Assembly (NCBI GenBank): GCA_041750555.1 | Contig: JBGSZB010000036.1 | Span: 17,473-81,472 of the forward strand | Direction: 5' to 3' | From: Candidatus Dojkabacteria bacterium | GTDB lineage: Bacteria > Patescibacteriota > Dojkabacteria > J137 | DNA length: 64,000 nucleotides | Part shown: one piece after another, positions 2,574 through 62,398 of the stretch | Layout: each line of letters opens with the position of its first letter | Position numbering within the stretch: the first letter of the stretch is position 1 | Program-made: the position numbers and the translations under genes | Notes under the pieces: model-generated | Database searches by the model: none | Seen by the model: only the letters and a program-made list of their open reading frames with translations | What the model was told of the DNA's origin: nothing

Positions 2574-3518
2574 ATGAATAGTACATTAAGTAATAATCAA
2601 TTAATGCAACCACCACAAAATACACCTATGAATAATTCACTACCACCATTACCCCCAATAAATGAAGTTGTTAATCCAACTCCTGTGCCATTACCAACAG
2701 TAACAAATGTCGTAGAAAATCTAGAGCCTACGATTGCAAGGGTAGAGTTAAATGATAAAGTTAATGATAAACCATTAGAAGTTGAAAAGAAAAAGGTTAA
2801 TTCAAAGAATGCTAATACTATTATAATTGTGTTAGGAGTTATATTTGTAATAGTATTAATAATACTATCATTTCTATTAGGTAGATTATCAGCCCCAGTA
2901 ATAACTAAAACTATAGATAATACAGATAATCAAGATGAAGAAGTTGTAAGTGTATTTGATTCATCATTATGGTTAGCTAGAGCACAAAACGGTAGTGGTT
3001 CATATGAAGTAACTGATAATGCTTTAACTATGTCTCTTAAAACTAGTCTTTTAGAATCTGGAACAGCATTTGCAAGGTATGATTTAAAAGAAGAATTACC
3101 TACTAACTTTGATGTTTCAGTTACAATGAGTGACTATGTATTAGATAGCGCTGTTAGTTCATCACTAAATAGGTTAGTATTTGGATTTGATGCTAATGAT
3201 ACTAATTTTTTTAATATTAGGCTTGTAACAGATGCTAGTGGATCATATTTAGATAGTAGGTATGTATCAGATAGTGTTAATGAAACTAGTGAAAAAGTTG
3301 TAATAACAGGAACTCCAGAAATTACATTTAGTGCTAAAAAAACTAGCAATAGTGTTACACTAAGTTATTCTCTAGATGGAGCAACTGCAATAGTTATTAG
3401 AGATATAGAGAACTTTATTGATCTTTCATTAACACCTTCTCTTCAATTATATGCAAATGTTAACAATACAATAGCTGAAGAAATTGAGGCTAAGTATAGT
3501 GCTTGGAGTGTAGAATAG
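2574..3518 (+). CDS. membrane-anchored protein with Pro-rich N-terminus and extracytoplasmic domain
   Basis: Pro-rich N-terminus, a single hydrophobic helix (IIIVLGVIFVIVLIILSFLLG), then a ~200-aa Ser/Thr-rich domain, followed by an intrinsic terminator. Confidence 0.4.
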   Translation: MNSTLSNNQLMQPPQNTPMNNSLPPLPPINEVVNPTPVPLPTVTNVVENLEPTIARVELNDKVNDKPLEVEKKKVNSKNANTIIIVLGVIFVIVLIILSFLLGRLSAPVITKTIDNTDNQDEEVVSVFDSSLWLARAQNGSGSYEVTDNALTMSLKTSLLESGTAFARYDLKEELPTNFDVSVTMSDYVLDSAVSSSLNRLVFGFDANDTNFFNIRLVTDASGSYLDSRYVSDSVNETSEKVVITGTPEITFSAKKTSNSVTLSYSLDGATAIVIRDIENFIDLSLTPSLQLYANVNNTIAEEIEAKYSAWSVE

Positions 3519-8991: not shown

Positions 8992-9363
8992 TTAAGCTTC
9001 TGTAGGGTAATATATTGATATAAGACTTCGTGCTCTAACTGCAGTTTCTCTTGAATTTTTTTCTATTTCTTGTAAATTTTCTCTAATAAAAGGTTTTACA
9101 TCTGCAGGACATAAAGCGTTTAAAACATAAACTACTTGAGTTAATTTTTCATCTGATCCAAATATCTCAAAAAAAAGAGATATGTATTTTAGATAAAATA
9201 TAAAGGCTTCTTCACTTTCTATTTTAATTCCTCTGCCTAAATACTGAACTTTATTAACAATACGTGCAGTAAATTCTTTACTATCTTCTAAAGTTCTAAG
9301 TATAATTAAATCATCACGAAGCTCGGCATGCGATTGATCAAAGTGATTAATTAATTTTGGCAT
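8992..9363 (-). CDS. small acidic hypothetical protein, paralog B
   Basis: YLKYISLFFEIFGSDEKLTQVVYVL aligns with paralog A (LLRIFLKTFQRDPRLIHVVTCII) and paralog D (LLALYLEVFKDDRRLTTVVEIIL). Confidence 0.5.
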   Translation of the reverse strand: MPKLINHFDQSHAELRDDLIILRTLEDSKEFTARIVNKVQYLGRGIKIESEEAFIFYLKYISLFFEIFGSDEKLTQVVYVLNALCPADVKPFIRENLQEIEKNSRETAVRARSLISIYYPTEA

Positions 9364-9847: not shown

Positions 9848-10240
9848 TTATTGTTCTTCTGAAAAACGTTTTCTTAAAAGATCATCTACCCGACCAAGTG
9901 TTGCTTGAGTATCCTGTTTAATATACAGCAGTTTTTGATGAATAAACTCTGAACATTCACTACACTCTGCTAATATAATCTCAACTACAGTTGTTAATCT
10001 TCTATCATCCTTAAATACTTCCAAGTAAAGAGCTAAAAGACTTAAAATATCATCTCTTCTACCTTCCATTGTCATTAGCATATTGTTTTTAGCTATAACT
10101 CCAAATCTAATTGCCTCTATGAATCTATCTCTTTCTAACACTTCATCCAATTTTTTAAGTTCTTCTAAATCAGCTATTACTCTAGCTTTGAGATCTCCTA
10201 TTGTAGTTTTTAAACCAATAAGTAAATTTTTATCTGGCAT
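9848..10240 (-). CDS. small acidic hypothetical protein, paralog D
   Basis: The motif is shared with paralogs A and B. Confidence 0.5.
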   Translation of the reverse strand: MPDKNLLIGLKTTIGDLKARVIADLEELKKLDEVLERDRFIEAIRFGVIAKNNMLMTMEGRRDDILSLLALYLEVFKDDRRLTTVVEIILAECSECSEFIHQKLLYIKQDTQATLGRVDDLLRKRFSEEQ

Positions 10241-19952: not shown

Positions 19953-20708
19953 TTATTGAGAAGTAAGGAGTAAATATAACTCATCAATGTTTTTAATAAC
20001 TTCTGTATTTAATTTTAAATTAGCTTTGTTACATAATTCTTTAATTTCATTTAATGACCAGTACCTTTGTTTAATAAAAGAAGTATAGGTCTTCGTATCT
20101 ATTGAGTTTTTAATATTTGTTACGATAATCTCTTCTTTTGATATTGAAGTATTAGTTTTACTAAAGTATTTATATGTTTTCCAATTTAAATCATATCTAA
20201 ATTCTGAATCTTGAGTAGTGTAGCTAAAATCAAATTGAGATGGATTAATATTTTCTGGGTTATCAATGTTTATAAGTATTTTGCCGTTTGTTTTTAGTAA
20301 TTTTTTACACTTATTTAAAAGTCTAATGGCATCTTTTTTTGTTAATGCTATTTCATTAAATGTATTCCAAAACATTATTATTAAATCATACTTTACTTTA
20401 GTATCAAATTTAAATATATTCTTGTTATGTAATTTAATGTTCATTTGTAAATCTTTATCAATAGTAGATAACTTTTCTTTAAATAACTGTAGTAATGATT
20501 TAGAACTATCTACAACATCAACTTTAAAATTTTGAGTGGCTAAAATTAAAGAATGTCTTCCACTACCTCCACCTATGTCTAGCACTCTACTATGAGGTGG
20601 TAAGTATTTATTAATTAAACCAATTTCTAGATTAGTAGCATCATCTCCTTTAATAAAAGAATTTACTATATCGTAGTATTTAGCTGTATTATCGTTACTA
20701 TTCTTCAT
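19953..20708 (-). CDS. class I SAM-dependent methyltransferase
   Basis: VLDIGGGSGRHS motif I. Confidence 0.65.
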   Translation of the reverse strand: MKNSNDNTAKYYDIVNSFIKGDDATNLEIGLINKYLPPHSRVLDIGGGSGRHSLILATQNFKVDVVDSSKSLLQLFKEKLSTIDKDLQMNIKLHNKNIFKFDTKVKYDLIIMFWNTFNEIALTKKDAIRLLNKCKKLLKTNGKILINIDNPENINPSQFDFSYTTQDSEFRYDLNWKTYKYFSKTNTSISKEEIIVTNIKNSIDTKTYTSFIKQRYWSLNEIKELCNKANLKLNTEVIKNIDELYLLLTSQ

Positions 20709-21816
20709 TTATTAATTCAGATATTGGGAAATAATTAATTTCAGAAATGTTTTTAGCATTAGCATATATCATAGCTAATCTATCTAATCCCATTCCTATT
20801 CCTGATACATCTGGCAATCCTGATTTTAATGCATCAATTAGATCATAATCAAAAGCTATCTCTTTCATTTTTAATCTTTTTCTGGCATTTTGTTCTTCAA
20901 TAAATCGTTTCTCTTGTTCATCTCCATCAATTAATTCTGTATATCCATTGGCTATCTCTTTATTAAACATGTATAGTTCTACCTTTTGACATACAAGTGG
21001 GTTAGCAGGATTTTCTTTAGTTAGTGGACACATTATTTTAGGGAAATCGTATAGAAATACAGGTTTATCTATTGGTAATTTATCTTCTATCTCTGAGCCA
21101 AATATTAATTCAAATATTGTTTGCCATTCATCATCGTTATCTACTTTGTAACCTCTATTTTTAGCAAAATTAATAAAATTATTTGTATCATTAATATCAC
21201 TTAATTCAATATTTAAATATTTCTTAAGTATTTCAGGTATTGAAAATCTATAGAAGGAGTCTTTAATATTAATTGTTTTACCAAGGTAATCTAGCGTTAA
21301 TGGTATATTCTTTACCTCCTTTAAGTTATTTATTTCATCAACACTTAAGTTTGAAATTTCTTTAATAGAGTAGTGTTGTAGGGCTTTAATGTATTTAAGT
21401 ATAAATCTCAAGAGTTCTTCAGTAGAATCCATTAAGTTAATATATGTATTACCTAGTTCATACCATTCTAACATTGTAAATTCTGGAGAGTGATTAACCC
21501 CTATATCTTCTAACCCTCTTAATACTTTTGTAATTACAAAATGATTACCTAATCCTGCACTTAATATTTTCTTGTTATATGTTTCTGTAGTAGGGGTTAA
21601 ATATGCTTTTAATTTCCTTTTGTTACTTAATTCAATTGTAGTTTCTAAAACATCTAAGTATCTCTCTTGTGGAAGCGCAGTTGTAATTATGGGGCTTTCT
21701 AACTCGTGATAGTTTCTATCCTCAAAAAACTTTCTACATGCTTTAATTATATATTCCTTAGTAAAATACCTTGGGAATAGGGTTGGATTATTTTTTAATT
21801 GTTTCCAAGTTCTCAT
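20698..21816 (-). CDS. epmA: EF-P lysine lysyltransferase (class II lysyl-tRNA synthetase paralog lacking anticodon-binding domain)
   Basis: NPEFTMLEWY is identical to E. coli EpmA. Motif 3 GMGLDRLAMI is present. There is no N-terminal OB domain. The gene is adjacent to efp. Confidence 0.75.
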   Translation of the reverse strand: MRTWKQLKNNPTLFPRYFTKEYIIKACRKFFEDRNYHELESPIITTALPQERYLDVLETTIELSNKRKLKAYLTPTTETYNKKILSAGLGNHFVITKVLRGLEDIGVNHSPEFTMLEWYELGNTYINLMDSTEELLRFILKYIKALQHYSIKEISNLSVDEINNLKEVKNIPLTLDYLGKTINIKDSFYRFSIPEILKKYLNIELSDINDTNNFINFAKNRGYKVDNDDEWQTIFELIFGSEIEDKLPIDKPVFLYDFPKIMCPLTKENPANPLVCQKVELYMFNKEIANGYTELIDGDEQEKRFIEEQNARKRLKMKEIAFDYDLIDALKSGLPDVSGIGMGLDRLAMIYANAKNISEINYFPISELINEE

Positions 21817-22373
21817 TATTCTTTAGAGAAGTATGTTCCAGTATCTGTGTTAATTACTATTCTTTCTCCATTTTTAATAAATAGAGGTACTTGTACTTTA
21901 AATCCAGTTTCTACTGTAGCTTCTTTAGATGCATTAGTTGCTGTATCTCCCTTAACTGCATCAAAGGTATCTATTATCTTTAATGTTATCTTTTGAGGTA
22001 TTTGAGCATATATTGGGTTACCTTCATAGAATGATATTATATATTTACCATCTTCATGAAGGAAATCTGTACCCCCAGGTATTAAATCCATTAATACATT
22101 TACTAAATCATATGTTGTTGGATCCATAAATACTGCACTGTTTCCCTCTACGTATGAATACTGCATTGTTTTAGACTCTATTTCTAATTCTTCTACCTTT
22201 TCTCCTGATCTAAATACATGATTAAATATTTTTCCACTTTTAATACTTTTAAGTCTAACTCTGTTAAATGCTCCACCTTTACCAGGGGAATAAAATTCTT
22301 TTTCTATTAAAACATGAGGTTCGTTATTAAACTCAATAATCATTCCTCTTCTTAATTCTGTTGTACCTGCCAT
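21816..22373 (-). CDS. efp: elongation factor P
   Basis: SPGKGGAFNRVRLKS loop carrying the modified Lys. 185 aa, three OB/KOW-like domains. Confidence 0.9.
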   Translation of the reverse strand: MAGTTELRRGMIIEFNNEPHVLIEKEFYSPGKGGAFNRVRLKSIKSGKIFNHVFRSGEKVEELEIESKTMQYSYVEGNSAVFMDPTTYDLVNVLMDLIPGGTDFLHEDGKYIISFYEGNPIYAQIPQKITLKIIDTFDAVKGDTATNASKEATVETGFKVQVPLFIKNGERIVINTDTGTYFSKE

Positions 22374-22411
22374 ATATGTATATTTATAAAGTTGATGTAT
22401 TTTAACAGATA

Positions 22412-24673
22412 TTAGATATTGTTAGAAGGTTTAATCTCTCTTTCTACAACATTATATCCAGGTAATCTAATTGTAAAATTTGAACCAACTCCTACCTTAC
22501 TTTTAATTTCAATTGTACCTCTCATTAATTTTACTAGGTTAAATACAACGTATAGTCCTATTCCTGTTCCTCCAGGTCTAATTACGTTCATTCTTTCATT
22601 ACCATCACTTAAGTATGTATTAACTCTAAAGAACTTTTTACCAAGGTTTGGTATAGCGTCTTCTGGAATACCTTCTCCTGTATCTTTAACTGTAACTACT
22701 ACATATCCATTCTCTTTATATGCTTCTACTCTAATTTCTCCCTTCTCTGTATATTTAACTGCATTACTAACTAAATTATCTACAACCTCTTGTACTTGAT
22801 CACGGGCTGCAAACGCTATTATTTCTCCCTCTCCAAATACAGAGTATAGCTTAATACCTTTTCTAGTAGAATCAGATGTATTACCCTCAATTGCTACATT
22901 AACAACATCTTTTATATCTACTTTCTCCATTATTATCTGCACCCTGTTATTTTCAATTCTTGTAGAGGAGAGTACTGTTTCTAAGATTTTAACTTCTCTT
23001 CTAATGTTTTCTAAAGCTTTTGTATACAAGTTATTTAATTCAAATTGTGTATCACTTTCATCTACTTTACCTATTGCACTTTTCATCATTGCTACTGCAT
23101 TTCTAGCTATACTTAATGGTGTTCTTAATTCATGTCCTAGTATATCCATCATATCTTTTTCTTTACGTAGTTGTTCAGATAACTCTTGGTTTTTTTGTTG
23201 AATTTCTTTGGTTGCTATTTCAACTTCCTTTTTAAGATTTAAGTTAAACACTTCAACTTCTTCATAAAGTTTAGATCTTGCAAAAGCAACCCCAGTAATT
23301 TTCGCAAGATTTGTAATAAAATCTAGTTGGCCACTTTCATAGGGATAGCTAATATTTTCTTCGCCTAAAATCAAGATTCCGATAAGCTCTTTAGGATCAA
23401 GAATAGGAACCATTAATCTAATATTATGCCTTTCAAGAATATTTTTTATTTTCATCAAGTCATCGAGATTATGAGATGAATTGTTAGGATTTATATTAAT
23501 AAGATCGTAGTTTAAAGGTTCAAATTTAGTTAATTGAAAAACCTTAATTACCTCGATTATCTCATCCTCATTGAAGATGTTTGGAAAGTTATTTTTCAGA
23601 TTTGAAATCAATTTTCTTTTGAGGTTTGTAAAATATATACTAAAATATTTAGGTCTTAGTGTGGTATTTAATGTGTTAAATAATGATTCGGATATTTCAT
23701 CTGTATCAAGCTTATTACTTATCTGTATGTTGTACTTGGCTAATTGTTCTGAAGGGTCGTATCCTGAGTTTAGTACTCTTTTAGTAACATTACTTTGTAA
23801 TGAAATTCGCAATTTGTCGTAAATTAGTAGAAAGGTTATACCAACTGGTATCCCTGTCAAAAGTGCGTTTATATTAAATACGCCTCCCCATAGGAAAGTA
23901 TCGATTATAAAGGATATATAAAATCCAGCCATCAGTACTATTGTTAAAACTGATATATAAATCAATCTTCCAAAAAGTATTCTAGTCTCAAAAAGTTTAT
24001 ATTTCAGAATTGAGTAGGCTATAGCTAAGTTAATTGGTATGCTAGTAAAGATACCTAGAAAAGATAGCCTAGAATTACCTAAAACTATTGGGAGAAGAAT
24101 ATTAGTTAACAAAGTTGAAATCAAAGTTATAATTATTCCACTATATACAATATTTACTGAAATCTTAGTCTTTATGTTATTTAGATGTCTGTGTGATCTT
24201 ATTATCCAAAATATACCTATAGTTACAATAACAATAAATAGTACAATTACTGGATAAATGTCGCCATAGAAAATCTTTTTAATAGCTGGATCTGTTCCTT
24301 CTATAACTAAATTTGTAAACAAGCTTAATAATCCTAAAATCAAGCTAAGAAGAAAGAATGGAATAGTAACTACACTTTTAGTTTTGAAACTAGAATTTAA
24401 GTCTTCATTTCTGTAGTGATATACAAATAAAAACAGATTGGAGATCAAAAGTGGGGCTGCAAACCACATTGACTTAGCAGCAGTATATGATACTTCTTGG
24501 CTTATATATGAGGAGAAAAAATAAAGACTCAAAACCCAAATGATGCTTGATATAATTAAAAATGAAAAGAAAAGTCCACTTAACTTTTTATTAATAAGAA
24601 AATGTCTAGCTGATATAAAAATGAAAACACAAAAAAGTGGAATAATAATGTAAAGTGCTAATTCAAGTATCAT
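22412..24673 (-). CDS. multi-pass membrane sensor histidine kinase
   Basis: About 8 N-terminal TM helices. H-box LGHELRTPLSIARNAV. N and G boxes (DTGEGIPEDAIPNLGKKFFR, GGTGIGLYVVFNLVKLMRG). Confidence 0.8.
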   Translation of the reverse strand: MILELALYIIIPLFCVFIFISARHFLINKKLSGLFFSFLIISSIIWVLSLYFFSSYISQEVSYTAAKSMWFAAPLLISNLFLFVYHYRNEDLNSSFKTKSVVTIPFFLLSLILGLLSLFTNLVIEGTDPAIKKIFYGDIYPVIVLFIVIVTIGIFWIIRSHRHLNNIKTKISVNIVYSGIIITLISTLLTNILLPIVLGNSRLSFLGIFTSIPINLAIAYSILKYKLFETRILFGRLIYISVLTIVLMAGFYISFIIDTFLWGGVFNINALLTGIPVGITFLLIYDKLRISLQSNVTKRVLNSGYDPSEQLAKYNIQISNKLDTDEISESLFNTLNTTLRPKYFSIYFTNLKRKLISNLKNNFPNIFNEDEIIEVIKVFQLTKFEPLNYDLININPNNSSHNLDDLMKIKNILERHNIRLMVPILDPKELIGILILGEENISYPYESGQLDFITNLAKITGVAFARSKLYEEVEVFNLNLKKEVEIATKEIQQKNQELSEQLRKEKDMMDILGHELRTPLSIARNAVAMMKSAIGKVDESDTQFELNNLYTKALENIRREVKILETVLSSTRIENNRVQIIMEKVDIKDVVNVAIEGNTSDSTRKGIKLYSVFGEGEIIAFAARDQVQEVVDNLVSNAVKYTEKGEIRVEAYKENGYVVVTVKDTGEGIPEDAIPNLGKKFFRVNTYLSDGNERMNVIRPGGTGIGLYVVFNLVKLMRGTIEIKSKVGVGSNFTIRLPGYNVVEREIKPSNNI

Positions 24674-24738: not shown

Positions 24739-26697
24739 TCAAATTTCAGCTACGAGTTCTATTGCTTTATGTATTTTGATTAAATCTTCCGCTGGGGATT
24801 CCCAGAACTTGATTACAACATCATAGTCGATTGTGGTTTTCCCCAGTTCCCGCATAATATGATCTAAATAAGGTTTAATCTCATTGATTGCTCCTTGTTC
24901 AAGAAGTCTCATGGTTTGTTCTCTAAGCCAATTAATAGATATGCATAAAACTTTTCCTACTGGAGAGGAGAAGTAGCCACTCATGCCTGCAGTTATTGAT
25001 TTAGTTTCAGATGTAGGTTTAACAAGAGTATTAATTAATACGTAATTACCATTGGTACTTGGAACCATTCCAGATAGGCCTATGTTCGTCATTGCTAGCA
25101 ATCCTGGATTTGGTTGAATAAATGCTGTGGTCATTGGAACACCATTTTTTGTGTTGACAATTTCATTAACTTTTCTGATAAATTTCGTAATATGAAATTC
25201 AATTCCAGTGCCAAGTCCTTCAAGCTCAGGAAATATCCTATGCCTCAATTCTTTATCCTCAAGTTTAACTAATCTTCCTGGCTCTCCTTCGAGAGTCTCT
25301 GAAAAATCAATTTTATTAAATACTTGAAACCTTGGGTCAAGCATAGGTGAATTGATTGGAGTCTCCATTCTTAAGAAGGGTGAAACTTTTCTGATTAATG
25401 TATCATTTGAAACAAGTATTTCTCTTATGAACGCCCTTATCTTATTATAATATTTTGCGTACTCAGGTTTTATACCATGCTCATCAAACTTATCTTGTAA
25501 ATCAATGCCCCACACCTCTTTAAGTAAAGCTATAGTTTTGCTATCTAAGGTAGTGACTTCGTCTGTTAAGAAACTCATTAATAAATCTAATTCACTCCCC
25601 CCATTTGCTATTAGATCATATGTTTCCTTTAACCTATTACTTCCAACTGTTCTTCTGCTTAGCGTATCTAACCTTGAAAAAGAATATCTTATCCCACCCG
25701 CTATTACTGGTTTACTCAAATTATCACTCATCGTTCCTGAAACTGGGATAGATATAATATCATCTCCAAAGAACTCATGGCTTAGTATGATTGATTCAAT
25801 TAACTTGAGATTCAATTGACTTGTCTCAGGGAGTTTAGCTACCTCAGAAGTTCTAGAGTTGGTATAGTCATGGTTAACATAATTATTTCCGAGAATTTCA
25901 AGATATTTAGCTATTACAAGTATTGTTTTTAAAAGTTTTTTATCAGTAATAGTTTTCGTTAAGTTGAGTTTAAATAATTCAATCTTCCCATTACACAATG
26001 CTAAAGTCTCAGCAACGGTTCGTATAAAAGTTCCAGAAACATGGACAAGGTATGCTTTATTTGATTTAGTTGCATCATTTATACTCGTAATATCTTCCAC
26101 AATTGCTACCCCATTGGTTGCATTTTTTTCAAACTCTATAGCTAAGTCATTAAGAAAGCTATCGTTTTCTTGGTCGCTTTGTCTGTCTGAATGATCTACT
26201 AAATTAAAAGTATTTAGTTTTGATAATTGAGTGTTGATCAATTCTTGCAATACATCGCCCTTCGGCATCAAAGCCTCAGCAAGAGATAGTTTGAGTTTTA
26301 AAAACCCATTACTTATTCTATCTATTATGACGAACATACCTATCCAATTTCCATCCCTACGATAGTTTATTATCTCGTTAATGTTTGCTCCTACAATTTC
26401 GTCAAATATACCTATATCAAAATCTTCACCTTGCTCTGTTGCAAAATGTTTAATCAAAGCTAGAATTAATTCTTTTATTATTGTTTTATTAAATTCTTCA
26501 GCTCTTTCCAAATCTTTACTCTCTTTGTCTAAAGGACTTTCGAGTTCTAAAAAATCATCTCTATCTATAGTATCCATAGATCCATAATTGTATGTTGTAT
26601 CATCAAAGGGTATAGGCTTAGGAGCTGGTAATAGCGGGATGTCAGGAACCTCTGTAAAGACTAATTGCTGGGATTCCCTTAACTTATAGTCTAACAC
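24739..26697 (-). CDS. large hypothetical protein (652 aa) of atypical, higher-GC composition
   Basis: Intact ORF with an SD-like tagggagtt upstream. Local GC is up to about 49%, against a roughly 28% background. No recognisable catalytic motif. Confidence 0.5.
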   Translation of the reverse strand: MLDYKLRESQQLVFTEVPDIPLLPAPKPIPFDDTTYNYGSMDTIDRDDFLELESPLDKESKDLERAEEFNKTIIKELILALIKHFATEQGEDFDIGIFDEIVGANINEIINYRRDGNWIGMFVIIDRISNGFLKLKLSLAEALMPKGDVLQELINTQLSKLNTFNLVDHSDRQSDQENDSFLNDLAIEFEKNATNGVAIVEDITSINDATKSNKAYLVHVSGTFIRTVAETLALCNGKIELFKLNLTKTITDKKLLKTILVIAKYLEILGNNYVNHDYTNSRTSEVAKLPETSQLNLKLIESIILSHEFFGDDIISIPVSGTMSDNLSKPVIAGGIRYSFSRLDTLSRRTVGSNRLKETYDLIANGGSELDLLMSFLTDEVTTLDSKTIALLKEVWGIDLQDKFDEHGIKPEYAKYYNKIRAFIREILVSNDTLIRKVSPFLRMETPINSPMLDPRFQVFNKIDFSETLEGEPGRLVKLEDKELRHRIFPELEGLGTGIEFHITKFIRKVNEIVNTKNGVPMTTAFIQPNPGLLAMTNIGLSGMVPSTNGNYVLINTLVKPTSETKSITAGMSGYFSSPVGKVLCISINWLREQTMRLLEQGAINEIKPYLDHIMRELGKTTIDYDVVIKFWESPAEDLIKIHKAIELVAEI

Positions 26698-26741
26698 ATT
26701 ATTTTTCTAACTCCCTAATTATAGCATTTCCAGTTAAAAAT

Positions 26742-26769
26742 GACAAAGCTTGGTAACTCAAGCTTTGTC
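26742..26769 (-). terminator. perfect 11-bp inverted repeat (gacaaagcttg-gtaact-caagctttgtc), probable terminator of the XRE operon or an operator
   Basis: On the minus strand the stem is followed by ATTTTTAA. It lies between the XRE1 stop and the 652-aa gene start. Confidence 0.45.
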
Positions 26770-26889
26770 TAGAAATTAATTACAGCTACAGAGAAAGAAT
26801 TCTATAAAATTACAATTCTTATATCTTTTCGAAAATATTATAAGGTTTCACTACGAAAACTCTACTATTAATTGTACAGATATTTAAGT

Positions 26890-27615
26890 TTATAAAGTAC
26901 GATAATGTAAAACCATAAACCTGTGATTACCCCATAGTGGCTCTACTGCATATTGAAGCTTTATCTTTTTTCCGAAAACACTAAACATTACTGTTCTGCT
27001 TGCGTTATCTCTAAAGTTTTTATCTTTACTTTCTTTAGAAGCAATATTCCATAATTCCAATGCCAAAGGATTGCTCTTTATGTATTGTAAAATATTCTCA
27101 TAATCTTCGTCACCTTCCATGAAATACATTTCTGAATAAGTTCTCAGAAACATATTATATGCAATTTCATTTAGGTAGTTCTTATCAATAAATTTATTAA
27201 TACCTAAACTGTTATCAAATAGTATCTGAGGCATATATTTTAATAATATCTTTTCTTTATCAAATCTCCCTAATTTACAGAAACAATCAGATATATCAAT
27301 TAAGCGTGATCTATCATCTACACAATATGATAAAGTTTTAAGTTGTCTATAATAAGGTCTAAGTATACTTCTTGCTTCCTCTATTTCTCGGATGTTAGGT
27401 GGTTTTGAGATGTTTCCGTTTAAATAGCTATATTCTAAAGAGTTTAGTTTTAATGCTCTTGAAATCTTATCTAGTGTTTCTTTTGTAGGGTTAGTAACAT
27501 TACTTTCAATTCTGCTAATTACTCCTGAAGATGCTCCAATTAAAACCTCTAAGTCTAATTGAGATAAACCCTTTAATCTTCTAAATACTCGTATTTTATT
27601 TCCTAATGTGTTCAT
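26890..27615 (-). CDS. XRE-family HTH regulator paralog 1 (HTH plus ~200-aa C-terminal domain, possibly MmyB-like)
   Basis: The likely true start is the internal MNTLGNKIRVFRRLKGLSQLDLEVLIGASSGVISRIE (HTH_XRE), not the upstream track start. The C-terminal motif HFMEGDEDYE is shared with paralogs 2 and 3. Confidence 0.6.
   Translation of the reverse strand: MNTLGNKIRVFRRLKGLSQLDLEVLIGASSGVISRIESNVTNPTKETLDKISRALKLNSLEYSYLNGNISKPPNIREIEEARSILRPYYRQLKTLSYCVDDRSRLIDISDCFCKLGRFDKEKILLKYMPQILFDNSLGINKFIDKNYLNEIAYNMFLRTYSEMYFMEGDEDYENILQYIKSNPLALELWNIASKESKDKNFRDNASRTVMFSVFGKKIKLQYAVEPLWGNHRFMVLHYRTL
27485..27615. repeat. ~130-bp direct repeat (copy 1) covering the HTH-coding 5' ends of XRE paralogs 1 and 2
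   Basis: About 88% nt identity with 28255..28384, including a 45-nt identical core (taagtctaattgagataaaccctttaatcttctaaatactcgtat). Confidence 0.7.
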
Positions 27616-28384
27616 TGTTATTAAATTTTTTAATAAGTTGTGAAAATCTATTGTTAATCCTATATTCCACCATCCTAAATCTAGGATTAAAGTATATAGG
27701 TTCAAGATAGAAGTCTAAATCAAATGAAATACCTAGGAATTTAAACTTAACCTTTAAATCATTTGGGTCCCTGAAATAGTTATCGGATTCAAGTTCTTCA
27801 GCTTTTCTCCATAATTTTATTGATAGTTCGTTTTGATTAATTCTATCTACCATCTCTTCGTAACATTCGTCTCCCTCCATAAAATGCATCTCAACATAGG
27901 TGGTCCTAAAGACATTGAGAGCAGCTCTCTCAAAATCATCATCAGATAAAAATTTTTTTGCTGGTGAATCATTGCTTGTTACAATATTTGTAAAATATTC
28001 CATTTCTAATCTTAATAGATCTTCATTAGAAAATTTTGCTAATCGTTTAAAACCGTTTGATAGTTTTATTAACCTATTTCTATCATCTAATATGTATCCA
28101 AACACCATAGGATTTTTTAAATGATCGGACATTTTATCTATAACTTCTTTTATTTCATTTTCAGTTGGAGGAAATGCAGTTCTTCCAATTAAATATTCAA
28201 CCTGAAGTTTATTCAAATCCAAAGATTCTATTATTTTAAATATCGTCTCTTTATTAGGATTAGTAACATTACTTTCAATTCTACTAATTACCCCAGAAGA
28301 AGCACCTATTAATACTTCTAAGTCTAATTGAGATAAACCCTTTAATCTTCTAAATACTCGTATCTTATTTCCTAAGGTATTCAT
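27596..28384 (-). CDS. XRE-family HTH regulator paralog 2
   Basis: The N-terminal 43 aa are identical to paralog 1. Its 3' end overlaps the paralog 1 start by 20 nt. Confidence 0.6.
   Translation of the reverse strand: MNTLGNKIRVFRRLKGLSQLDLEVLIGASSGVISRIESNVTNPNKETIFKIIESLDLNKLQVEYLIGRTAFPPTENEIKEVIDKMSDHLKNPMVFGYILDDRNRLIKLSNGFKRLAKFSNEDLLRLEMEYFTNIVTSNDSPAKKFLSDDDFERAALNVFRTTYVEMHFMEGDECYEEMVDRINQNELSIKLWRKAEELESDNYFRDPNDLKVKFKFLGISFDLDFYLEPIYFNPRFRMVEYRINNRFSQLIKKFNNNEHIRK
28255..28384. repeat. ~130-bp direct repeat (copy 2)
   Basis: See copy 1. Confidence 0.7.
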
Positions 28385-29175
28385 ATACTTGTAATCTTTT
28401 TCAATAACTTTAAAGCAGTATTAGTTGGAATATATTCTACAATCCTAAATTTTTGATTAAACCAGTATGATTCTAGAGAATATGTCATTTTGAAATTAAC
28501 CCCATATGCTCTAAAAGTGATAGTTCTACTTTCCCAAGGGCTATGTGCAGGTATCTCTTTACTAGTATATAAATCCCAATATTTTTTAGCTAAATCATTG
28601 TTATTTATCTTTTTAATCATATCTTCATAACATTCATCACCAATCATAAAGTGGGTTTCTGTATAACAATGAGAGAATACATTTTGTAGTGTTAATTCAT
28701 AATCTTCATTAGTTAGATATCTTTTAATAGGTATTGAATCATCAGTTGCAATAATTGGCATATATTGCATTAATATCTTATCCATATCCTTTTTATCCCA
28801 TTTTGCTAAACGTATAAATGCATCTGACATTGCAATCATTCTTTCTCTATCATCTACAATATATGCAAAAGTAAAAGGTTTACTAAAGTAATCCTTAATT
28901 TGTTCTCTAACTAAATCAATTTCATCTTGAGTTGCAGGATATGCAGTATCTCCTATTAAATAGTCAGCTTCAAAGTTATTTAATTTTAAAGTTTTAATTA
29001 TCTTAATTAATGTCTCTTTACTAGGATTAGTACCTCCAGATTCAATTCTACTTATTACTCCATTAGAAGCTCCTATTGCTACTTCTAGGGATAGTTGAGA
29101 AAGTCCTTTTAGATTCCTAAAGACTCTTATTTTCCTACCAATGTCTTTGTATGTTTCTTCACCTCTATATCCCAT
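28381..29175 (-). CDS. XRE-family HTH regulator paralog 3
   Basis: IGRKIRVFRNLKGLSQLSLEVAIGASNGVISRIESGGTNPSKETL HTH. C-terminal FAYIVDDRERMIAMSDAFIRLAK...HFMIGDECYEDM...FRIVEY aligns with paralogs 1 and 2. Confidence 0.6.
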   Translation of the reverse strand: MGYRGEETYKDIGRKIRVFRNLKGLSQLSLEVAIGASNGVISRIESGGTNPSKETLIKIIKTLKLNNFEADYLIGDTAYPATQDEIDLVREQIKDYFSKPFTFAYIVDDRERMIAMSDAFIRLAKWDKKDMDKILMQYMPIIATDDSIPIKRYLTNEDYELTLQNVFSHCYTETHFMIGDECYEDMIKKINNNDLAKKYWDLYTSKEIPAHSPWESRTITFRAYGVNFKMTYSLESYWFNQKFRIVEYIPTNTALKLLKKITSI

Positions 29176-29236
29176 AGTAGATAAAGGATTTTACATAAAT
29201 TATATTGTTTTTACTATATTTTTATGTATAAAACAA

Positions 29237-29250
29237 TGTATTGCAATACA
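29237..29250. promoter_or_regulatory. palindromic operator-like site TGTATTGCAATACA (TGTAT-N4-ATACA), about 60 bp upstream of XRE paralog 3
   Basis: Perfect 14-bp palindrome. The same dyad recurs at 29736 and 33573. Confidence 0.45.
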
Positions 29251-29260
29251 AATTTGGAAA

Positions 29261-29686
29261 TTAGTTTAAATTGTTCTCAATCCATTCTTTGGCAAATTTT
29301 GGGACTAAATTTATTTCCTTAACTTTCTTCAAATCAACCCATTGAGGTTCATAGAAATTATTAGGGCAGTTTTTGAGTAGTTCCTCACCACCAAGTTTAA
29401 GCTCTCCTGATAGATATTCACACATGTAGTAGTAATCAAAATTATTTCTATGTAAATCTCTAAATTCAAATACAGGAATAATATTGCTTACAAATATCCC
29501 TGTCTCCTCTTCCAATTCTCTTGCAACAACTTCCTCATATTTTTCACCTATCCTAATATGACCTCCTGGAATAACCCAATAGATCTTCCCCTTATATTTT
29601 CTATATATTAATAGGATTTTGTTATTGTTAATTACAATCCCTGCGTGCCTTTGGTTGCTAATTCTCGTATCACTATCTAAATGCAT
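29261..29686 (-). CDS. NUDIX hydrolase
   Basis: Nudix box GGHIRIGEKYEEVVARELEEETGI. 141 aa. Confidence 0.8.
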   Translation of the reverse strand: MHLDSDTRISNQRHAGIVINNNKILLIYRKYKGKIYWVIPGGHIRIGEKYEEVVARELEEETGIFVSNIIPVFEFRDLHRNNFDYYYMCEYLSGELKLGGEELLKNCPNNFYEPQWVDLKKVKEINLVPKFAKEWIENNLN

Positions 29687-29735
29687 ATAGTTAGATTAAA
29701 TATTTAAAATATAACAAAAAATATAATTAAAAGCA

Positions 29736-29751
29736 TTGTATTGTAATACAA
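29736..29751. promoter_or_regulatory. operator-like dyad TTGTATTgtAATACAA (TGTAT-N4-ATACA), about 50 bp upstream of the NUDIX gene
   Basis: 7-2-7 inverted repeat, 13 of 14 positions identical to the site at 29237. Confidence 0.45.
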
Positions 29752-29763
29752 GTTTTATAGATT

Positions 29764-30387
29764 TTAAATAAATTTAAACGAGTTAAGTATTGTATTAAAA
29801 TCTTCCAAATAACTTGAATTATCTGTGTGTCCATCTACTGAATAGCTATTAAACTTTCTAAACATAACTTTAACTGCATCTTTACCATTTCCATTCCAAT
29901 AAGAATAATATTCGAGATTATTACTTTGATGTTTATATAAAATAGTCTCATATTCAGAACTTATATCAACACTTATCCATTCTTCAGATGCTGCACCATC
30001 ATACTCCATAGCTTGTTTCTTAAGGTCACTACCTTTGTCTGGAAAGTAAAGGATAGTTACTATTTCATTTTTACTAAATCCGCCATATGCTTTTGGTCTA
30101 AGACCCATATCTTCCCTTTTTGGAACAAACTCCCATATGTCTGGATAATTATAACTAAATTTGCCAGAAGGATGTGTGTAGGTTTTTAGATCTTCTTGAA
30201 AATATGTTATAGAATCATTGTCAGTATAGGAAATTGGGGTATCATCTTTATCGTTCATCGGCACATCGCTGTTTGTATTAATATTTAGAGGTGAACTATT
30301 AATCTGATTTATTACAAGCAATATTATAGAAAATAAAGCTATTATAAAAAACAAGCCAATAGAAATAATTATAAATTTCTTTATCAT
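29764..30387 (-). CDS. membrane-anchored hypothetical exported protein
   Basis: N-terminal TM/signal anchor. First gene downstream of the fibre/CHAP cluster. Confidence 0.4.
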   Translation of the reverse strand: MIKKFIIISIGLFFIIALFSIILLVINQINSSPLNINTNSDVPMNDKDDTPISYTDNDSITYFQEDLKTYTHPSGKFSYNYPDIWEFVPKREDMGLRPKAYGGFSKNEIVTILYFPDKGSDLKKQAMEYDGAASEEWISVDISSEYETILYKHQSNNLEYYSYWNGNGKDAVKVMFRKFNSYSVDGHTDNSSYLEDFNTILNSFKFI

Positions 30388-30393
30388 TTTTTC

Positions 30394-31041
30394 TTAATTA
30401 ATAAATAAGTTTACACTACTACCGTTTTGGAACGTACTATCTGGTAATATACTGATACTACTATTGCTAGCTACTGAGCAGTTAAATGTTTGACCCGATA
30501 CTACAGTCATATTTTGGATAGTAGTACTACCAGAACTACAACTACTTGTTATCTGTAGATAATGATCACCACTAGCTGACCCTCTTTCGTTATAGTTACC
30601 ATCTCCATAATTATAATTCCATTCAGAAATAAATACAGTACCGTTTGTATTTATTTTTTCAACCCACGCAACATGCCCTGCTGAACCTGATCCACCATTA
30701 TTAGCATCCCAGTTTACAGGATTACCAACACTTGGAGTTGTACTTACACTATAACCAATATAACTTGCAGCAGTATCCCAGTTTTCTGCATTCCCCATTT
30801 TTGATGTTAATCCATTTGGACCAGTTGGATTGTTATGGAATGGAACGCCAGCTTGATTTATTTTCCACATAACATAAGAGGTACAGTTTCTTGTATAGGT
30901 ATTCCATTGATCAACCTCATCTTCAGGTGAATCTGCATATGGATAACCAGTTGAATTACTTGGATATTCCCATGCATATATCTTGTTAGGTATTAATACT
31001 GTAAAAAAGACTAAGATTAATATTTTAAATAGATTTTTCAT
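30394..31041 (-). CDS. secreted CHAP-domain protein (putative peptidoglycan amidase/peptidase)
   Basis: Signal peptide. Cys in NCTSYVMWKINQAG and His in GHVAWVEKIN in CHAP-like spacing. Confidence 0.7.
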   Translation of the reverse strand: MKNLFKILILVFFTVLIPNKIYAWEYPSNSTGYPYADSPEDEVDQWNTYTRNCTSYVMWKINQAGVPFHNNPTGPNGLTSKMGNAENWDTAASYIGYSVSTTPSVGNPVNWDANNGGSGSAGHVAWVEKINTNGTVFISEWNYNYGDGNYNERGSASGDHYLQITSSCSSGSTTIQNMTVVSGQTFNCSVASNSSISILPDSTFQNGSSVNLFIN

Positions 31042-31889
31042 AATATTTCGTTAAAATTTAGTTTAAATGTAGTATCTTCAGAATTATTTTCTCTTCTATT
31101 TTCGTCCAACCGTCTAGACACCTTTAATTGATTATCTGAATACTCAATTTTGTCGTAGTTAGGAAGTTTTCCACTTTCATCTATATTAAAAACATTCTTA
31201 GACTTTATTTTTTTACTTACTGTATCGATAATACTTACATCAACTCCCGTTTGTTTACAATTTAAATTTTCACACATACTTCTTGTAGTTAAATAAGCAA
31301 AAGATTTATTGTTTATCCAGCTTCCGCTAGGAGAATATGTTTTATCAACATTTAGCTTTGTTTTCCCTGTATTAATATCTATAAATGATATGTTAGTTTC
31401 TCCAATACTTTGAGCTCTTTCAGCTAAAACAAGAGTTTTTGAATCTGGACTAATAGCTATTGGGAATTTATGATACCCAGAGTTGTCAAATTCTATCTTT
31501 TTGATCACTTTATTATTTTTAAATGAGTATACATAAATATATTTCTCACTTCCCCAGCTTGAAGTTGACTTCTTAGTGTAATAAAAAAGTTTGATTGTCT
31601 TATCTAAAATTCCCTCGTTAAAATTCAATTGCTCTAAAGTATTTCCTTTCGATTTCATATAAACCTTTTCATTTAATAATTGAAATGAATCAGTTTTCGG
31701 ACTATCAACTAAAGGAAAACTTAAAGGATAGCTGCTAACCAACCTATCCTCTAAAGGTACTGATCTATTCTGAGCATAAACTAGTGAACTTAAACTCATT
31801 ATTCCTGTACTCACTACACTTAAAGTTAATAGAGCAGTTAGTGAATACTTAAAATATGGTATCTTCCTCATATTATTTAACATTAACAA
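31038..31889 (-). CDS. secreted beta-propeller-like (TolB-like) protein
   Basis: Signal peptide. Repeat-like segments such as IAISPDSKTLVLAERA. Confidence 0.45.
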   Translation of the reverse strand: MLMLNNMRKIPYFKYSLTALLTLSVVSTGIMSLSSLVYAQNRSVPLEDRLVSSYPLSFPLVDSPKTDSFQLLNEKVYMKSKGNTLEQLNFNEGILDKTIKLFYYTKKSTSSWGSEKYIYVYSFKNNKVIKKIEFDNSGYHKFPIAISPDSKTLVLAERAQSIGETNISFIDINTGKTKLNVDKTYSPSGSWINNKSFAYLTTRSMCENLNCKQTGVDVSIIDTVSKKIKSKNVFNIDESGKLPNYDKIEYSDNQLKVSRRLDENRRENNSEDTTFKLNFNEIL

Positions 31890-32643
31890 ATAAATTCTCT
31901 AATCTCTCGATTCTTTCTAATAACTCACTATTCTCAAGTATAAGATTATTTATCTCTTTCTCTTGATTAATAGTGTATAAAGTTAACTCCTCAATCTTTT
32001 CCATATGCAGTCTCTGCATTTCACCTAAAGATAATCCTTCACTTCCAATCTCCTTTGCATCAGGAATGTTAGGTAAGTGATTAAACTCACTTATATATTT
32101 CTCAACATCACTTAAACTCATTAAATTGTAATTATCATCAAAAACATAATCTGGCCATGAAGCTGCATTACTTGTTACTAATACTTCTTTAGCTTGTACA
32201 GTCCCATAAACTGATAGCTTTAAATTAGCTCCAACATTAGACGATTTCATTACAATATTTCTCCAGGGAGACAGTAATAGATCTCCTCCACATCCTGCGC
32301 AACCTGAATATGACCCTGCAGGTTGTTCTATGGCAAGTCCATAACTACCTAGTAGTGAGTGACCATATGGATAAGTTCTAATATTCCAGTATCTATTACT
32401 TACGTGTTCTAATCTCATATGAGTATATTTGGCATTAGCATCGTTTCCTCCTTTTGTTTGTAACTTAACATTTGCTTCAGGGACATTTGTACCAATACCC
32501 ACAGCTCCATTGTTATAGTAGATTGCATAACCATTATAGTTCCATGGGAAGTCACCAAGTGCTGCGTGTGCTATTTCTGGTTTAAGTCCTACTAATGCTA
32601 TAAATATAGCAAACCCTATTAGTCCTAACCTTTTAATTTTCAT
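31873..32643 (-). CDS. secreted tail-fibre-like protein, paralog 1
   Basis: Sec signal peptide. GIGTNVPEA-type N-terminal repeat. Conserved C-terminal module WPDYVFDDNYNLMSLSDVEKYISEFNHLPNIP...LSLGEMQRL..KIEELTLYTINQEKEIN followed by a coiled coil. Confidence 0.55.
   Translation of the reverse strand: MKIKRLGLIGFAIFIALVGLKPEIAHAALGDFPWNYNGYAIYYNNGAVGIGTNVPEANVKLQTKGGNDANAKYTHMRLEHVSNRYWNIRTYPYGHSLLGSYGLAIEQPAGSYSGCAGCGGDLLLSPWRNIVMKSSNVGANLKLSVYGTVQAKEVLVTSNAASWPDYVFDDNYNLMSLSDVEKYISEFNHLPNIPDAKEIGSEGLSLGEMQRLHMEKIEELTLYTINQEKEINNLILENSELLERIERLENLFVNVK
31950..32165. repeat. ~215-bp repeat (copy 1) encoding the shared C-terminal fibre domain
   Basis: About 85-90% nt identity with 32730..32945. 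Confidence 0.7.
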
Positions 32644-32685
32644 GCTTACATATTAAAAAATAAAATAGTTTTTCAATGTTAATAT

Positions 32686-33525
32686 TCACTTTAATTTTTG
32701 GATTAAATAATTTACTTTATCTTTTAATTCGTTAATCTCTTTCTCTTGATTAATAGTATAAAGCGTTAATTCTTCAATCTTTTCCATTTGTAATCTTTGC
32801 ATATCTCCTAAAGATAATCCTTCAGCTTCAACTGCTGTAGCGTTAGGAATGTTTGGTAAATGATTAAACTCACTAATATATTTCTCAACATCACTTAAAC
32901 TCATTAAATTGTAATTATTATCAAATACGTAGTCAGGCCAATTACTTGAATTTAAATTAACTCTAACTTCTCTAGCATAAAGAGCATTGTTAGTTATCTT
33001 AACTCTTGTTACATCGTCAGTTACAAATTCAAAACTATCTCCTGTAGTAAATTTCCATGTACCAGTACCCGCTCCTCCTGCAACTCTTGAAACTGACATT
33101 GTTCTTCCATCATTGTTTTTTAAAGTCAGAATTTCGCCATTGTTAATTAAGTTAGTACGACCTTTAATAGTTGTAAGTCCATTATTCATATCAACATTTA
33201 AAAACTCACTCCCTATTCTATTTCTAACAATAAAGTTTTTAGTGTTACTTCCAGGATTAGCTAATCTTCCAACATATACCTTACTATTTACTTCATCTAC
33301 AAAGATTTGACCTTGAGTTGTACCACTTGGTTTAGATCCAACATCTAAAAGTCCACTAGGAGAATTATTACCAATTCCAATGTTGCCCTCGTTATAGAAG
33401 ATGTTAGATCCTGAACTAGACCAGCTTCCTGGGGCTGAGAGTATAGGAGTAGTAAATGAATTAAAAAGTGTAACTGTAACTATAAACACACCTAGACTAT
33501 ATAGTAATTTATTTCTCATAAACAT
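32686..33525 (-). CDS. secreted tail-fibre-like protein, paralog 2
   Basis: Same architecture. The C-terminal ~70 aa are about 85% identical to paralog 1. Confidence 0.55.
   Translation of the reverse strand: MFMRNKLLYSLGVFIVTVTLFNSFTTPILSAPGSWSSSGSNIFYNEGNIGIGNNSPSGLLDVGSKPSGTTQGQIFVDEVNSKVYVGRLANPGSNTKNFIVRNRIGSEFLNVDMNNGLTTIKGRTNLINNGEILTLKNNDGRTMSVSRVAGGAGTGTWKFTTGDSFEFVTDDVTRVKITNNALYAREVRVNLNSSNWPDYVFDNNYNLMSLSDVEKYISEFNHLPNIPNATAVEAEGLSLGDMQRLQMEKIEELTLYTINQEKEINELKDKVNYLIQKLK
32730..32945. repeat. ~215-bp repeat (copy 2)
   Basis: See copy 1. Confidence 0.7.
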
Positions 33526-33572
33526 TAATTAAAAATTATTAATTCCAGTATTGAGTTTTTAATATTTTTCAA

Positions 33573-33592
33573 CAATGTATAGGAATACATTG
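33573..33592. promoter_or_regulatory. operator-like dyad CAATGTAT-agga-ATACATTG (TGTAT-N4-ATACA), about 50 bp upstream of the fibre/CHAP operon
   Basis: Perfect 8-4-8 inverted repeat in the divergent intergenic region 33526..33711. Confidence 0.45.
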
Positions 33593-33711
33593 ACAATGTA
33601 AGAAGTAGGTGAGATATCTATTGGTTAGTAAAGAATTAATATACTTTTAATAAATAAATATTTCTATAGGGTAAATATTCATAATATAATTAAGTAGTTA
33701 ATAAAAATTTT

Positions 33712-36527: not shown

Positions 36528-36599
36528 AGCGGGTAGCGGGAATCGAACCCGCCTCATCAGTTTGGAAAACTGGCATAATAACCGATATACTATACCCGC
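36528..36599 (-). tRNA. tRNA-Gly (anticodon UCC), no encoded CCA
   Basis: Reverse-complement reads GCGGGTATAGTATATCGGTTATTATGCCAGTTTTCCAAACTGATGAGGCGGGTTCGATTCCCGCTACCCGCT. The anticodon loop is TTTCCAA. The T-arm GGTTCGATTCC and the acceptor stem match bacterial glyT-type tRNA. Confidence 0.85.
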
Positions 36600-61955: not shown

Positions 61956-62014
61956 ATGGAATATTAATTCTATGTATTATAATACTAAAGTTAATTAGTT
62001 GTTAAATTATTGTT

Positions 62015-62398
62015 ATGTCTAAATTAAGTAAGGTTAAAAGAGTGTATAAAAATAGTTTTGTTGATGAGTTTAAAGAGTTTGCTTTTAAAGGTAATTTAAT
62101 AGAACTCGCTGTAGGTATTATTATTGGTACTGCATTTAATAAGTTAGTTCAATCATTAATTACTGATATTATTATGCCACCAATTGGTAAATTATTAGGT
62201 AATACATCATTTAGTAATTTATACATTAATTTAAGTGATACAACTTATTCATCACTAAATGATGCTATAGAAGCTGGAGCTCCTGTTATTAAGTATGGTT
62301 TATTTATTAATGAATTAATTAACTTTATAATATTAGCTATAACTGTATTCTTAGTTATTAAGTTTGTATTAAGGGTTAAGAGAGAGGAGAAAGAATAG
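62015..62398 (+). CDS. mscL: large-conductance mechanosensitive channel
   Basis: FKEFAFKGNLIELAVGIIIGTAFNKLVQSLITDIIMPPIG matches the MscL TM1/periplasmic loop. Confidence 0.9.
   Translation: MSKLSKVKRVYKNSFVDEFKEFAFKGNLIELAVGIIIGTAFNKLVQSLITDIIMPPIGKLLGNTSFSNLYINLSDTTYSSLNDAIEAGAPVIKYGLFINELINFIILAITVFLVIKFVLRVKREEKE

Follow-up and report, generated by a model that had tools for sequence, protein, structure and literature searches.

In a 64-kb stretch of DNA from a Candidatus Dojkabacteria bacterium (contig JBGSZB010000036.1; the whole stretch is called the window here), we found that one palindromic sequence, TGTAT-N4-ATACA, precedes a tandem operon of XRE-family regulators, a NUDIX hydrolase gene, and an operon for secreted proteins that includes a predicted CHAP-type peptidoglycan hydrolase. 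The adjacent regulators carry an XRE-type helix-turn-helix (HTH) head followed by a PAS-like domain. We put the probability at roughly 0.6 that the dyads are sites for dimers of these regulators and are placed to activate promoters with a weak -35 element.

The dyad TGTATNNNNATACA has exactly three matches within the window, compared with 0.18 expected by chance, and three matches were reached in 0 of 100 dinucleotide-preserving shuffles. The copies are TGTATTGCAATACA at 29237-29250, TGTATTGTAATACA at 29737-29750, and TGTATAGGAATACA at 33576-33589. All three are intergenic in a window in which our own open reading frame (ORF) calls leave 6.4% of the DNA intergenic. Each lies upstream of a minus-strand gene, at 61 nt from the start codon of XRE3 (29175), 50 nt from that of the NUDIX gene (29686), and 50 nt from that of fibre1 (33525). 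The original prediction, which had been made from the letters of the window, had described three near-identical dyads about 60, 50, and 50 bp upstream of these genes and none in the other intergenic regions inspected, and in this it was right. Its coordinates were good to within 1 to 3 nt and mixed the starts of cores with those of flanks. It had also counted ten co-oriented minus-strand genes; the co-orientation holds, and the count is nine (three XRE genes, the NUDIX gene, and five genes of the secreted operon). The promoter features are as follows.

Dyad 1, 29236..29251, minus strand: reads TTGTATTGCAATACAT on that strand, its central 14 bp (29237-29250) forming a perfect palindrome; proposed site for the regulator at the XRE3-XRE2-XRE1 promoter; exact match to the pattern; position weight matrix (PWM) score 23.0 of a maximum 26.4; CCAAAT upstream and TG after the 16-mer in the gene direction; XRE3 ATG 60-61 nt downstream.
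Candidate -10 of the XRE promoter, 29208..29218, minus strand: TAAAAA at offset 22 (29213-29208) or TATAGT at offset 17 (29218-29213).
Dyad 2, 29736..29751, minus strand: reads TTGTATTACAATACAA on that strand; exact match; PWM score 23.5; proposed regulator site of the NUDIX promoter; begins 13 nt past the stop codon of the 207-aa gene; followed by TG, 20 nt, and TATATT (29713-29708) at offset 22; NUDIX ATG 49-50 nt downstream.
Dyad 3, 33575..33590, minus strand: ATGTATAGGAATACAT, with 8-bp arms CAATGTAT and ATACATTG; exact match; PWM score 12.8, the poorest match among the three dyads; flanked by divergent genes, fibre1 (minus) and a DUF1801 gene (plus); followed in the minus direction by TG, 20 nt, and AATACT (33552-33547) at offset 22; fibre1 ATG 49-50 nt downstream.

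The same motif recurs in related genomes. Our comparison set held 60 related loci, mostly from Candidatus Dojkabacteria metagenome-assembled genomes (MAGs) obtained by genome scan, and 70 metagenome loci; loci are numbered with an L below. We made a census of palindromes with every 5-mer arm and spacers of 0 to 10 in the window and the 60 loci (1.0 Mb, 8.5% intergenic). The top three intergenic palindromes were TTGTA-N6-TACAA (27 intergenic and 6 genic copies), TGTAT-N4-ATACA (23 and 3), and GTATT-N2-AATAC (19 and 5), and these are one motif with the 16-bp consensus TTGTATTGCAATACAA. Of the 26 exact copies of TGTAT-N4-ATACA, 23 fall in the 8.5% of bases that are intergenic, the enrichment that the original prediction had proposed as a check.

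The dyad is the core of TTGTATTGCAATACAA and belongs to a directional module, AAAAT-dyad-TG-N20-TAnAAT. We oriented the sites by their flanks, with AAAAT on one side and TG on the other. Read forward, 15 of 37 sites have TAnnnT exactly 22 nt past the 16-mer; read in reverse, 1 of 37 does. Relative to this predicted -10, the 16-mer covers about -50 to -35, with its center near -42.5. At the -35 position TG alone is conserved, so that the hexamer is reduced to (A/T)TG. In the window, the modules are TTGTATTGCAATACAT-TG-N20-TAAAAA for the XRE promoter, TTGTATTACAATACAA-TG-N20-TATATT for the NUDIX promoter, and ATGTATTCCTATACAT-TG-N20-AATACT for the fibre promoter, with TTGTTT, ATGCTT, and TTGTTG at the -35 position. 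The offset-22 candidate of the XRE promoter occupies the conserved -10 position of related loci. The predicted transcription start sites (TSSs) of the three modules would lie about 7 nt past the -10, close to 29201, 29701, and 33540 on the minus strand. A canonical TTGTCA-17-TATAAT promoter exists nearby (26746-26718), so that a weak -35 sets the dyad promoters apart from ordinary ones.

Two intergenic one-mismatch dyads also occur in the window, at 22377 and 61973. Matches with one mismatch are at background there (12, including the 3 exact ones, against 7.45 expected). The second of the two, ATGTATTATAATACTA at 61972-61987, lies between divergent genes at 61209-61955 (minus) and 62015-62398 (plus). 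We rejected it as a module site because the two start codons are 16 and 27 nt away, which leaves too little room for the module geometry.

A fixed distance to the -10 and directional flanks would also be seen if an alternative sigma factor, and not a dimeric regulator, recognized the motif as part of the promoter. We find this very improbable, since the two arms are equally conserved and variants alter both, whereas a sigma factor needs no two-fold symmetry; in addition, about 20-21 nt separate the -10 from the proximal arm, more than a -35 element would allow. Palindromic variants that change both arms together include TGTAATGCATTACA in L014 and TGTACTGCGGTACA in L042, and in L001, the locus with the closest homologs, a single variant, TGYGCCAYGGYACA, is found in the promoters of both the XRE and the fibre gene. 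Some modules carry an altered or hybrid promoter-distal half-site (TGCGCC... joined to ...AATACA, or TGYGCCAYGGYACA); they are found at L008 8981, L053 9529, L025 6684, and L001 5185 and 9141. These might reflect paralog-specific or heterodimer recognition.

Palindromes between operons can also be RNA hairpins acting as attenuators or terminators, or may be chance or duplicated sequence. The distance from the preceding stop codon is 10 nt for Dyad 1 (NUDIX) and 13 nt for Dyad 2 (p207), and some variants retain G-U-compatible pairs, as hairpins would. Against this, the stem would have 5-7 A/U-rich pairs and no T-run, and our terminator scan skips the dyads. Since the conserved -10 follows the dyad, transcripts from that promoter do not include the dyad, and what is conserved across phyla is the sequence, beyond the pairing. 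The shuffles described above exclude chance, and the flanks of the three window sites share nothing beyond the module. We regard this whole group of explanations as scarcely credible. A mobile-repeat origin was rejected for such reasons as well.

The motif is linked to the XRE family itself. In the related loci, a site with a PWM score of at least 12 lies upstream of 17 of 60 XRE operon heads, compared with 29 of 565 other heads (Fisher p 1e-7). The exact dyad is found at 9 XRE operon heads, typically 48-67 nt from the start codon. Because the 60 loci had been chosen through the XRE gene, we ran a reciprocal test that started from the motif. Searched for exact copies of TTGTATTGCAATACAATG, the metagenome collection yielded 77 matches, 28 with the upstream flank signature and 49 without. 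A -10 at offset 22 follows 18 of the 28 flank-signature modules and 3 of the 49 other (chance) matches. We also found an XRE-family gene 54-167 bp away from 7 of the 28 modules, which lie on short contigs, and from none of the 49 chance matches, whose loci hold almost three times as much DNA. These results support the original prediction of a dyad-linked candidate regulon.

The module is not limited to genomes like that of the window. A lineage of 40-48% GC, with one of its genome records bearing the label Nitrospirae, has a module that is nearly identical over about 60 nt, spacer included (GGAAAT-TTGTATTGCAATACAATGCAATTTTTATGAAAAGATGC-TATAAA). It precedes differing genes, and an XRE-family gene often lies upstream of it at a distance of about 100 bp. 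Its loci are L039 (5150), L062, L063, L067, L078, L080, L090, L094-L096, L098, L103, L109, L119, L120, L122, and L127. The pair of head and site is therefore not confined to the candidate phyla radiation (CPR).

These associations bear on the alternative that a different factor encoded elsewhere, such as a CRP/FNR-like protein, binds the dyad and that XRE operons are merely frequent targets. The shape of the dyad (5-N6-5 or 5-N4-5 near -42) resembles CRP, FNR, and NtcA sites, most XRE-family operons have no dyad, and many targets are far from any XRE gene. On the other hand, we found no other DNA-binding regulator among 30 window proteins scanned with Pfam, with about 30 ORFs of at least 100 aa unscanned. 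The same HTH family lies beside 7 of the 28 modules of the reciprocal scan, and the association repeats in the separate 40-48% GC lineage (L039-type loci). We consider a different factor quite unlikely.

The regulator genes form a single operon.

XRE3, 28381..29175, minus strand: 264 aa; HTH_3 head and, in the structural model, a PAS-like sensor domain.
XRE2, 27596..28384, minus strand: 262 aa; Pfam HTH_3; its start overlaps the XRE3 stop (ATGA).
XRE1, 26890..27615, minus strand: 241 aa; Pfam HTH_3; aligned with its paralogs.

All three score 33-40 bits against the HTH_3 model, compared with a Pfam cut-off of 23, and 25 of 25 family members match it. The first 43 aa of XRE1 and XRE2 are identical despite about 12 synonymous DNA differences, while their C-terminal domains are 34% identical; XRE2 and XRE3 are 46% identical, and the sensor domains of the three paralogs share 34-38% identity. 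Because the heads of XRE1 and XRE2 are identical and the sensor domains only 34-38% identical, the paralogs would share a DNA specificity and differ in what they sense. With nearly the same DNA-reading head, the three paralogs probably relay different ligand signals to a common set of sites. Relative to its paralogs, XRE1 is shorter by about 20 residues and has no counterpart of the last C-terminal helix that the other family members possess, and its function may be altered.

A large protein database contains no more than 24 relatives of XRE3, and the named ones are from Candidatus Dojkabacteria. Proteins with this HTH head are typically 240-270 aa long and frequently lie in tandem arrays of 2-4 genes, and one 1.19-Mb chromosome carries three separate XRE-family loci. 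Residues Y105, D108, S117, M177, and D180 are conserved in the C-terminal domain. In the predicted structure, the protein has the two-domain architecture of MmyB and MltR, with an Xre HTH and a packed C-terminal PAS-like domain. We found no match to the ligand-domain family PF17765 (MLTR_LBD) in Pfam searches with the three paralogs (E<=0.01) or with 25 family members (E<=5), and a profile of the XRE family recovered only HTH domains from the PDB sequences and did not find 3pxp.

MmyB is an activator thought to bind pseudo-palindromic B-boxes, and in MltR dimers the recognition helices are about 10 bp apart (PMC3406030). The Dojkabacteria regulators share with these MmyB-like proteins (MltR, PDB 3pxp; Streptomyces coelicolor MmyB) an Xre-type HTH joined to a PAS-like domain of about 190 aa, many paralogs per genome, a regulator gene that adjoins its targets, and a (pseudo)palindromic box. 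They differ in that they are not members of the ligand-domain family at the sequence level, belong to CPR bacteria outside the published distribution, and are encoded as tandem co-transcribed paralogs. Whereas the targets of MmyB-like regulators are antibiotic or SDR genes, those here are genes for secreted and cell-wall proteins and NUDIX enzymes. MmyB-like regulators are further characterized by a small amphipathic ligand that occupies the PAS-like pocket and switches DNA binding.

RNPP activators such as ComR and PlcR likewise combine an XRE HTH with a sensor, act at a palindromic box that replaces the -35, and form autoregulatory loops. A signal-sensing XRE activator with a box at a fixed distance upstream of the -10 is what we propose here. 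Structural comparison gave PlcR and ComR as matches to the XRE model over the HTH only. The RNPP sensor (PlcR, ComR, Rgg) is a TPR domain that binds peptides, whereas the modelled sensor here is alpha/beta and PAS-like, and no peptide gene is evident. In Caulobacter, a radiated cluster of paralogous XRE regulators is reported to control the holdfast adhesin (PMC10688885). Paralogous XRE regulators are linked to the control of a surface-attachment structure in that system, which is one of Alphaproteobacteria and their phage; the likeness is one of regulatory logic only.

According to our model, dimers of the Cro/C1-HTH and PAS-like regulators, with MmyB/MltR architecture, would bind the three dyads, and a dimer bound at -42.5 would touch RNA polymerase and so activate transcription. 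The module would drive the XRE3-XRE2-XRE1 operon, giving positive autoregulation with an end at the 26742 terminator; it would also drive the NUDIX gene and the operon fibre1-fibre2-p283-CHAP-p207. Binding of the dyad by the XRE proteins, its activating effect, and ligand sensing are what we infer from the arrangement described above.

A symmetric site near -42 is the activator geometry of class II promoters (CRP, FNR, and NtcA) and of lambda cI at OR2/PRM. The module shares with these a symmetric site near -41.5/-42.5, a strict spacing to the (predicted) -10, and a poor or absent -35 hexamer. The half-site differs, being TTGTAT here, and the geometry here is that of predicted promoters. NtcA sites read GTA-N8-TAC, whereas the motif here reads GTA-N6-TAC, and the regulator here has no cNMP-binding or S24 peptidase domain, in contrast to the CRP-type proteins and lambda cI.

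The core of the Escherichia coli LexA SOS box is CTGTAT-N4-ATACAG, and its inner 14 bp, TGTAT-N4-ATACA, are those of our dyad. We rejected an SOS box for these sites. Its outer C/G is T/A here (T at 35 of 37 sites; the window sites begin ATGT, TTGT, and ATGT), the adjacent regulators have a PAS-like C-terminal domain and no S24 peptidase domain, and the targets are not SOS genes but genes for XRE regulators, NUDIX enzymes, secreted proteins, peptidoglycan hydrolases, GreA, and FGE-sulfatase proteins.

The same regulators at the same sites might instead repress. In that case, a dimer at -50 to -35 would block sigma region 4, autoregulation would be negative, and a ligand would derepress the NUDIX and fibre/CHAP genes. 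Most of the XRE-family proteins that have been characterized repress their own genes (PMC12565409), the dyad and the -35 position overlap, and modules beside XRE genes are often wrongly oriented for activating them. However, with the -35 nearly absent and TG alone conserved, the promoters look activator dependent; the spacing is no less strict than in class II promoters, and an activator, MmyB, is among the closest structural relatives (the MmyB-like regulators). We therefore judge repression to be unlikely, though it deserves serious weight, and the operator named in the original prediction is better read as an activator site than as one for a repressor.

Several observations weigh against activation by the adjacent XRE proteins. 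The position of the site, -50 to -35, could also let a bound protein occlude the -35 and repress. The -10 spacing is constant in part because the edge of the dyad contributes the -35 TG, and the TSS positions are predicted. Dyad 3 is a weak match (PWM score 12.8) with a poor -10 (AATACT). About 70% of the XRE-family operon heads in the related loci, several close homologs included, have no canonical dyad, and the residues of the recognition helix (GS[IL]SRIE type) show only a trend with the presence of the canonical dyad (Fisher p 0.15), which we do not count as evidence. In L020, L022, L033, and L058, the module beside the XRE gene points away from it. All of the evidence for binding and regulation is correlative.

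In L022 (about 6800-6912), L033 (about 9850-9974), L028 (about 9050-9174), and L058 (about 3152-3301), modules that point away from a nearby XRE gene lead into an unannotated stretch of about 60-100 nt with a terminator-like hairpin at its end, a candidate small RNA. These short divergent transcripts beside XRE genes matched no known RNA family in Rfam. L028 and L033 have a second dyad in the opposite orientation about 130 bp away.

The other genes that activation by the XRE regulators would reach, and the end of the block, are as follows.

NUDIX hydrolase, 29261..29686, minus strand: 141 aa; Pfam NUDIX E 1e-18; own dyad promoter.
fibre1, 32686..33525, minus strand: 279 aa; secreted, beta-rich, with a C-terminal coiled coil; first of the five operon genes.
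fibre2, 31873..32643, minus strand: 256 aa; paralog of fibre1 with 39% identity.
p283, 31038..31889, minus strand: 283 aa; secreted.
CHAP hydrolase, 30394..31041, minus strand: 215 aa; secreted; predicted peptidoglycan hydrolase (Pfam CHAP E 6e-16).
p207, 29764..30387, minus strand: 207 aa; membrane anchored by an N-terminal hydrophobic helix; last operon gene.
Terminator-like hairpin, 26742..26769, minus strand: 11-pair stem with 5 G-C pairs, 6-nt loop, and ATTTTT tail (ATTTTTAACT).

The XRE, NUDIX, and CHAP labels that these genes had been given earlier are confirmed by Pfam. The names fibre-like and, for p283, beta-propeller could not be verified. We found no significant family match for fibre1, fibre2, p283, or p207 in Pfam, NCBIfam, or PHROG; p283 has only weak matches to the hydrazine synthase beta subunit (E 0.006 and 0.02), and p207 has a weak Pfam match to PsbP_2 (E 0.006). 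The AlphaFold2 model of fibre1 reaches a moderate pLDDT of 73.8 and matches no PDB fold significantly; the best match is a Bdellovibrio fibre at E 0.5. The fibre family has 1686 homologs in Dojkabacteria and Bacteroidota, all annotated as hypothetical and covered by no Pfam model, with an invariant C-terminal motif, WPDYVF...HLP...KIEELTLY, followed by the coiled coil.

We found that the targets are conserved together with the module. With a hidden Markov model of the fibre family, we found five operon heads in all of the fetched DNA (the window, L001, L005, L051, and L125), and the module or a variant of it is upstream of all five. The closest parallel is L051, in which a syntenic operon, fibre-p283-CHAP-p207, is 35-60% identical to that of the window and adjoins a short XRE gene. 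Its promoter is TTGTATTGCGGCACAA-TG-N20-TACAAT, its CHAP ortholog is 60% identical, its p283 ortholog holds the same operon position, and a p207 ortholog is present. Three of the fibre-headed operons include a cell-wall hydrolase, two of them CHAP and one M23; in L005, an M23 peptidase follows the fibre-family gene, mirroring the CHAP hydrolase of the window. NUDIX genes lie behind the module as well, at 34 nt in L058 and in an operon with a 50%-identical NUDIX homolog in L033. Homologous loci keep the dyad or a variant of it at both kinds of target, as the original prediction had asked to be compared.

Other modules precede genes for LGFP-repeat proteins, a GreA-like factor, and FGE-sulfatase-like proteins, and the regulon is therefore broader than a surface module. 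A crude count of signal peptides showed no enrichment among the first genes behind modules (7 of 29, compared with 279 of 1049 overall). The surface theme rests on specific conserved families and not on a general bias.

The hairpin at 26742 that had been described as a perfect 11-bp one is present. It lies 121 nt past the XRE1 stop codon and has the GC-containing stem and T-run of an intrinsic terminator. It overlaps the near-consensus sigma-70-like promoter mentioned above (26746-26718; 11/12), which has an extended -10 and apparently drives a 652-aa protein of no assigned family (24739-26697) and a histidine kinase (22412-24673). The genes that flank the block are ordinary chromosomal ones, including those for EF-P, the histidine kinase, transketolase, and ABC transporters. 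On the minus strand at 20698-22373, the EF-P gene is directly upstream of a gene for a 372-aa protein resembling class II aminoacyl-tRNA synthetases, an arrangement reminiscent of EF-P and the enzyme that lysylates it (EpmA/PoxA type). A tRNA gene at 36528-36599 (minus) is the only match in the window at the Rfam gathering threshold.

A broader and much more tentative proposal is that expanded tandem arrays of a hitherto unrecognized family of XRE-PAS sensors, in Dojkabacteria and in some other CPR and non-CPR bacteria, use one head and diverged sensor domains to converge on a -42.5 activator site, so that several signals switch on an attachment and attack kit of an episymbiont. This kit would consist of secreted fibre-family proteins and peptidoglycan hydrolases. 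The paralogs possibly act as heterodimers, since hybrid half-sites exist, and the signals are possibly host derived. If this were true, it would be the first defined signal-responsive regulon of Dojkabacteria, an uncultivated phylum. Our literature searches found no description of an XRE regulon in Dojkabacteria or Patescibacteria. The conceptual surprise is limited because the mechanism would be that of a standard dimeric HTH regulator at a palindrome.

Because most CPR/Patescibacteria are beyond the reach of cultivation, their gene regulation has hardly been explored. What the locus described here adds is a candidate regulon with a 16-bp site (TTGTATTGCAATACAA), a promoter architecture, and a candidate family of ligand-sensing regulators. 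For an uncultivated CPR lineage, it would supply a phylum-wide regulatory motif tied to secreted proteins and cell-wall hydrolases, and this motif could help to predict which genes are co-regulated in MAGs of Dojkabacteria. The output of the regulon is conserved and consists of secreted fibre-family proteins with CHAP or M23 hydrolases, together with NUDIX enzymes. Such outputs are the kind of functions that would be expected in contact with, or attack on, a host cell.

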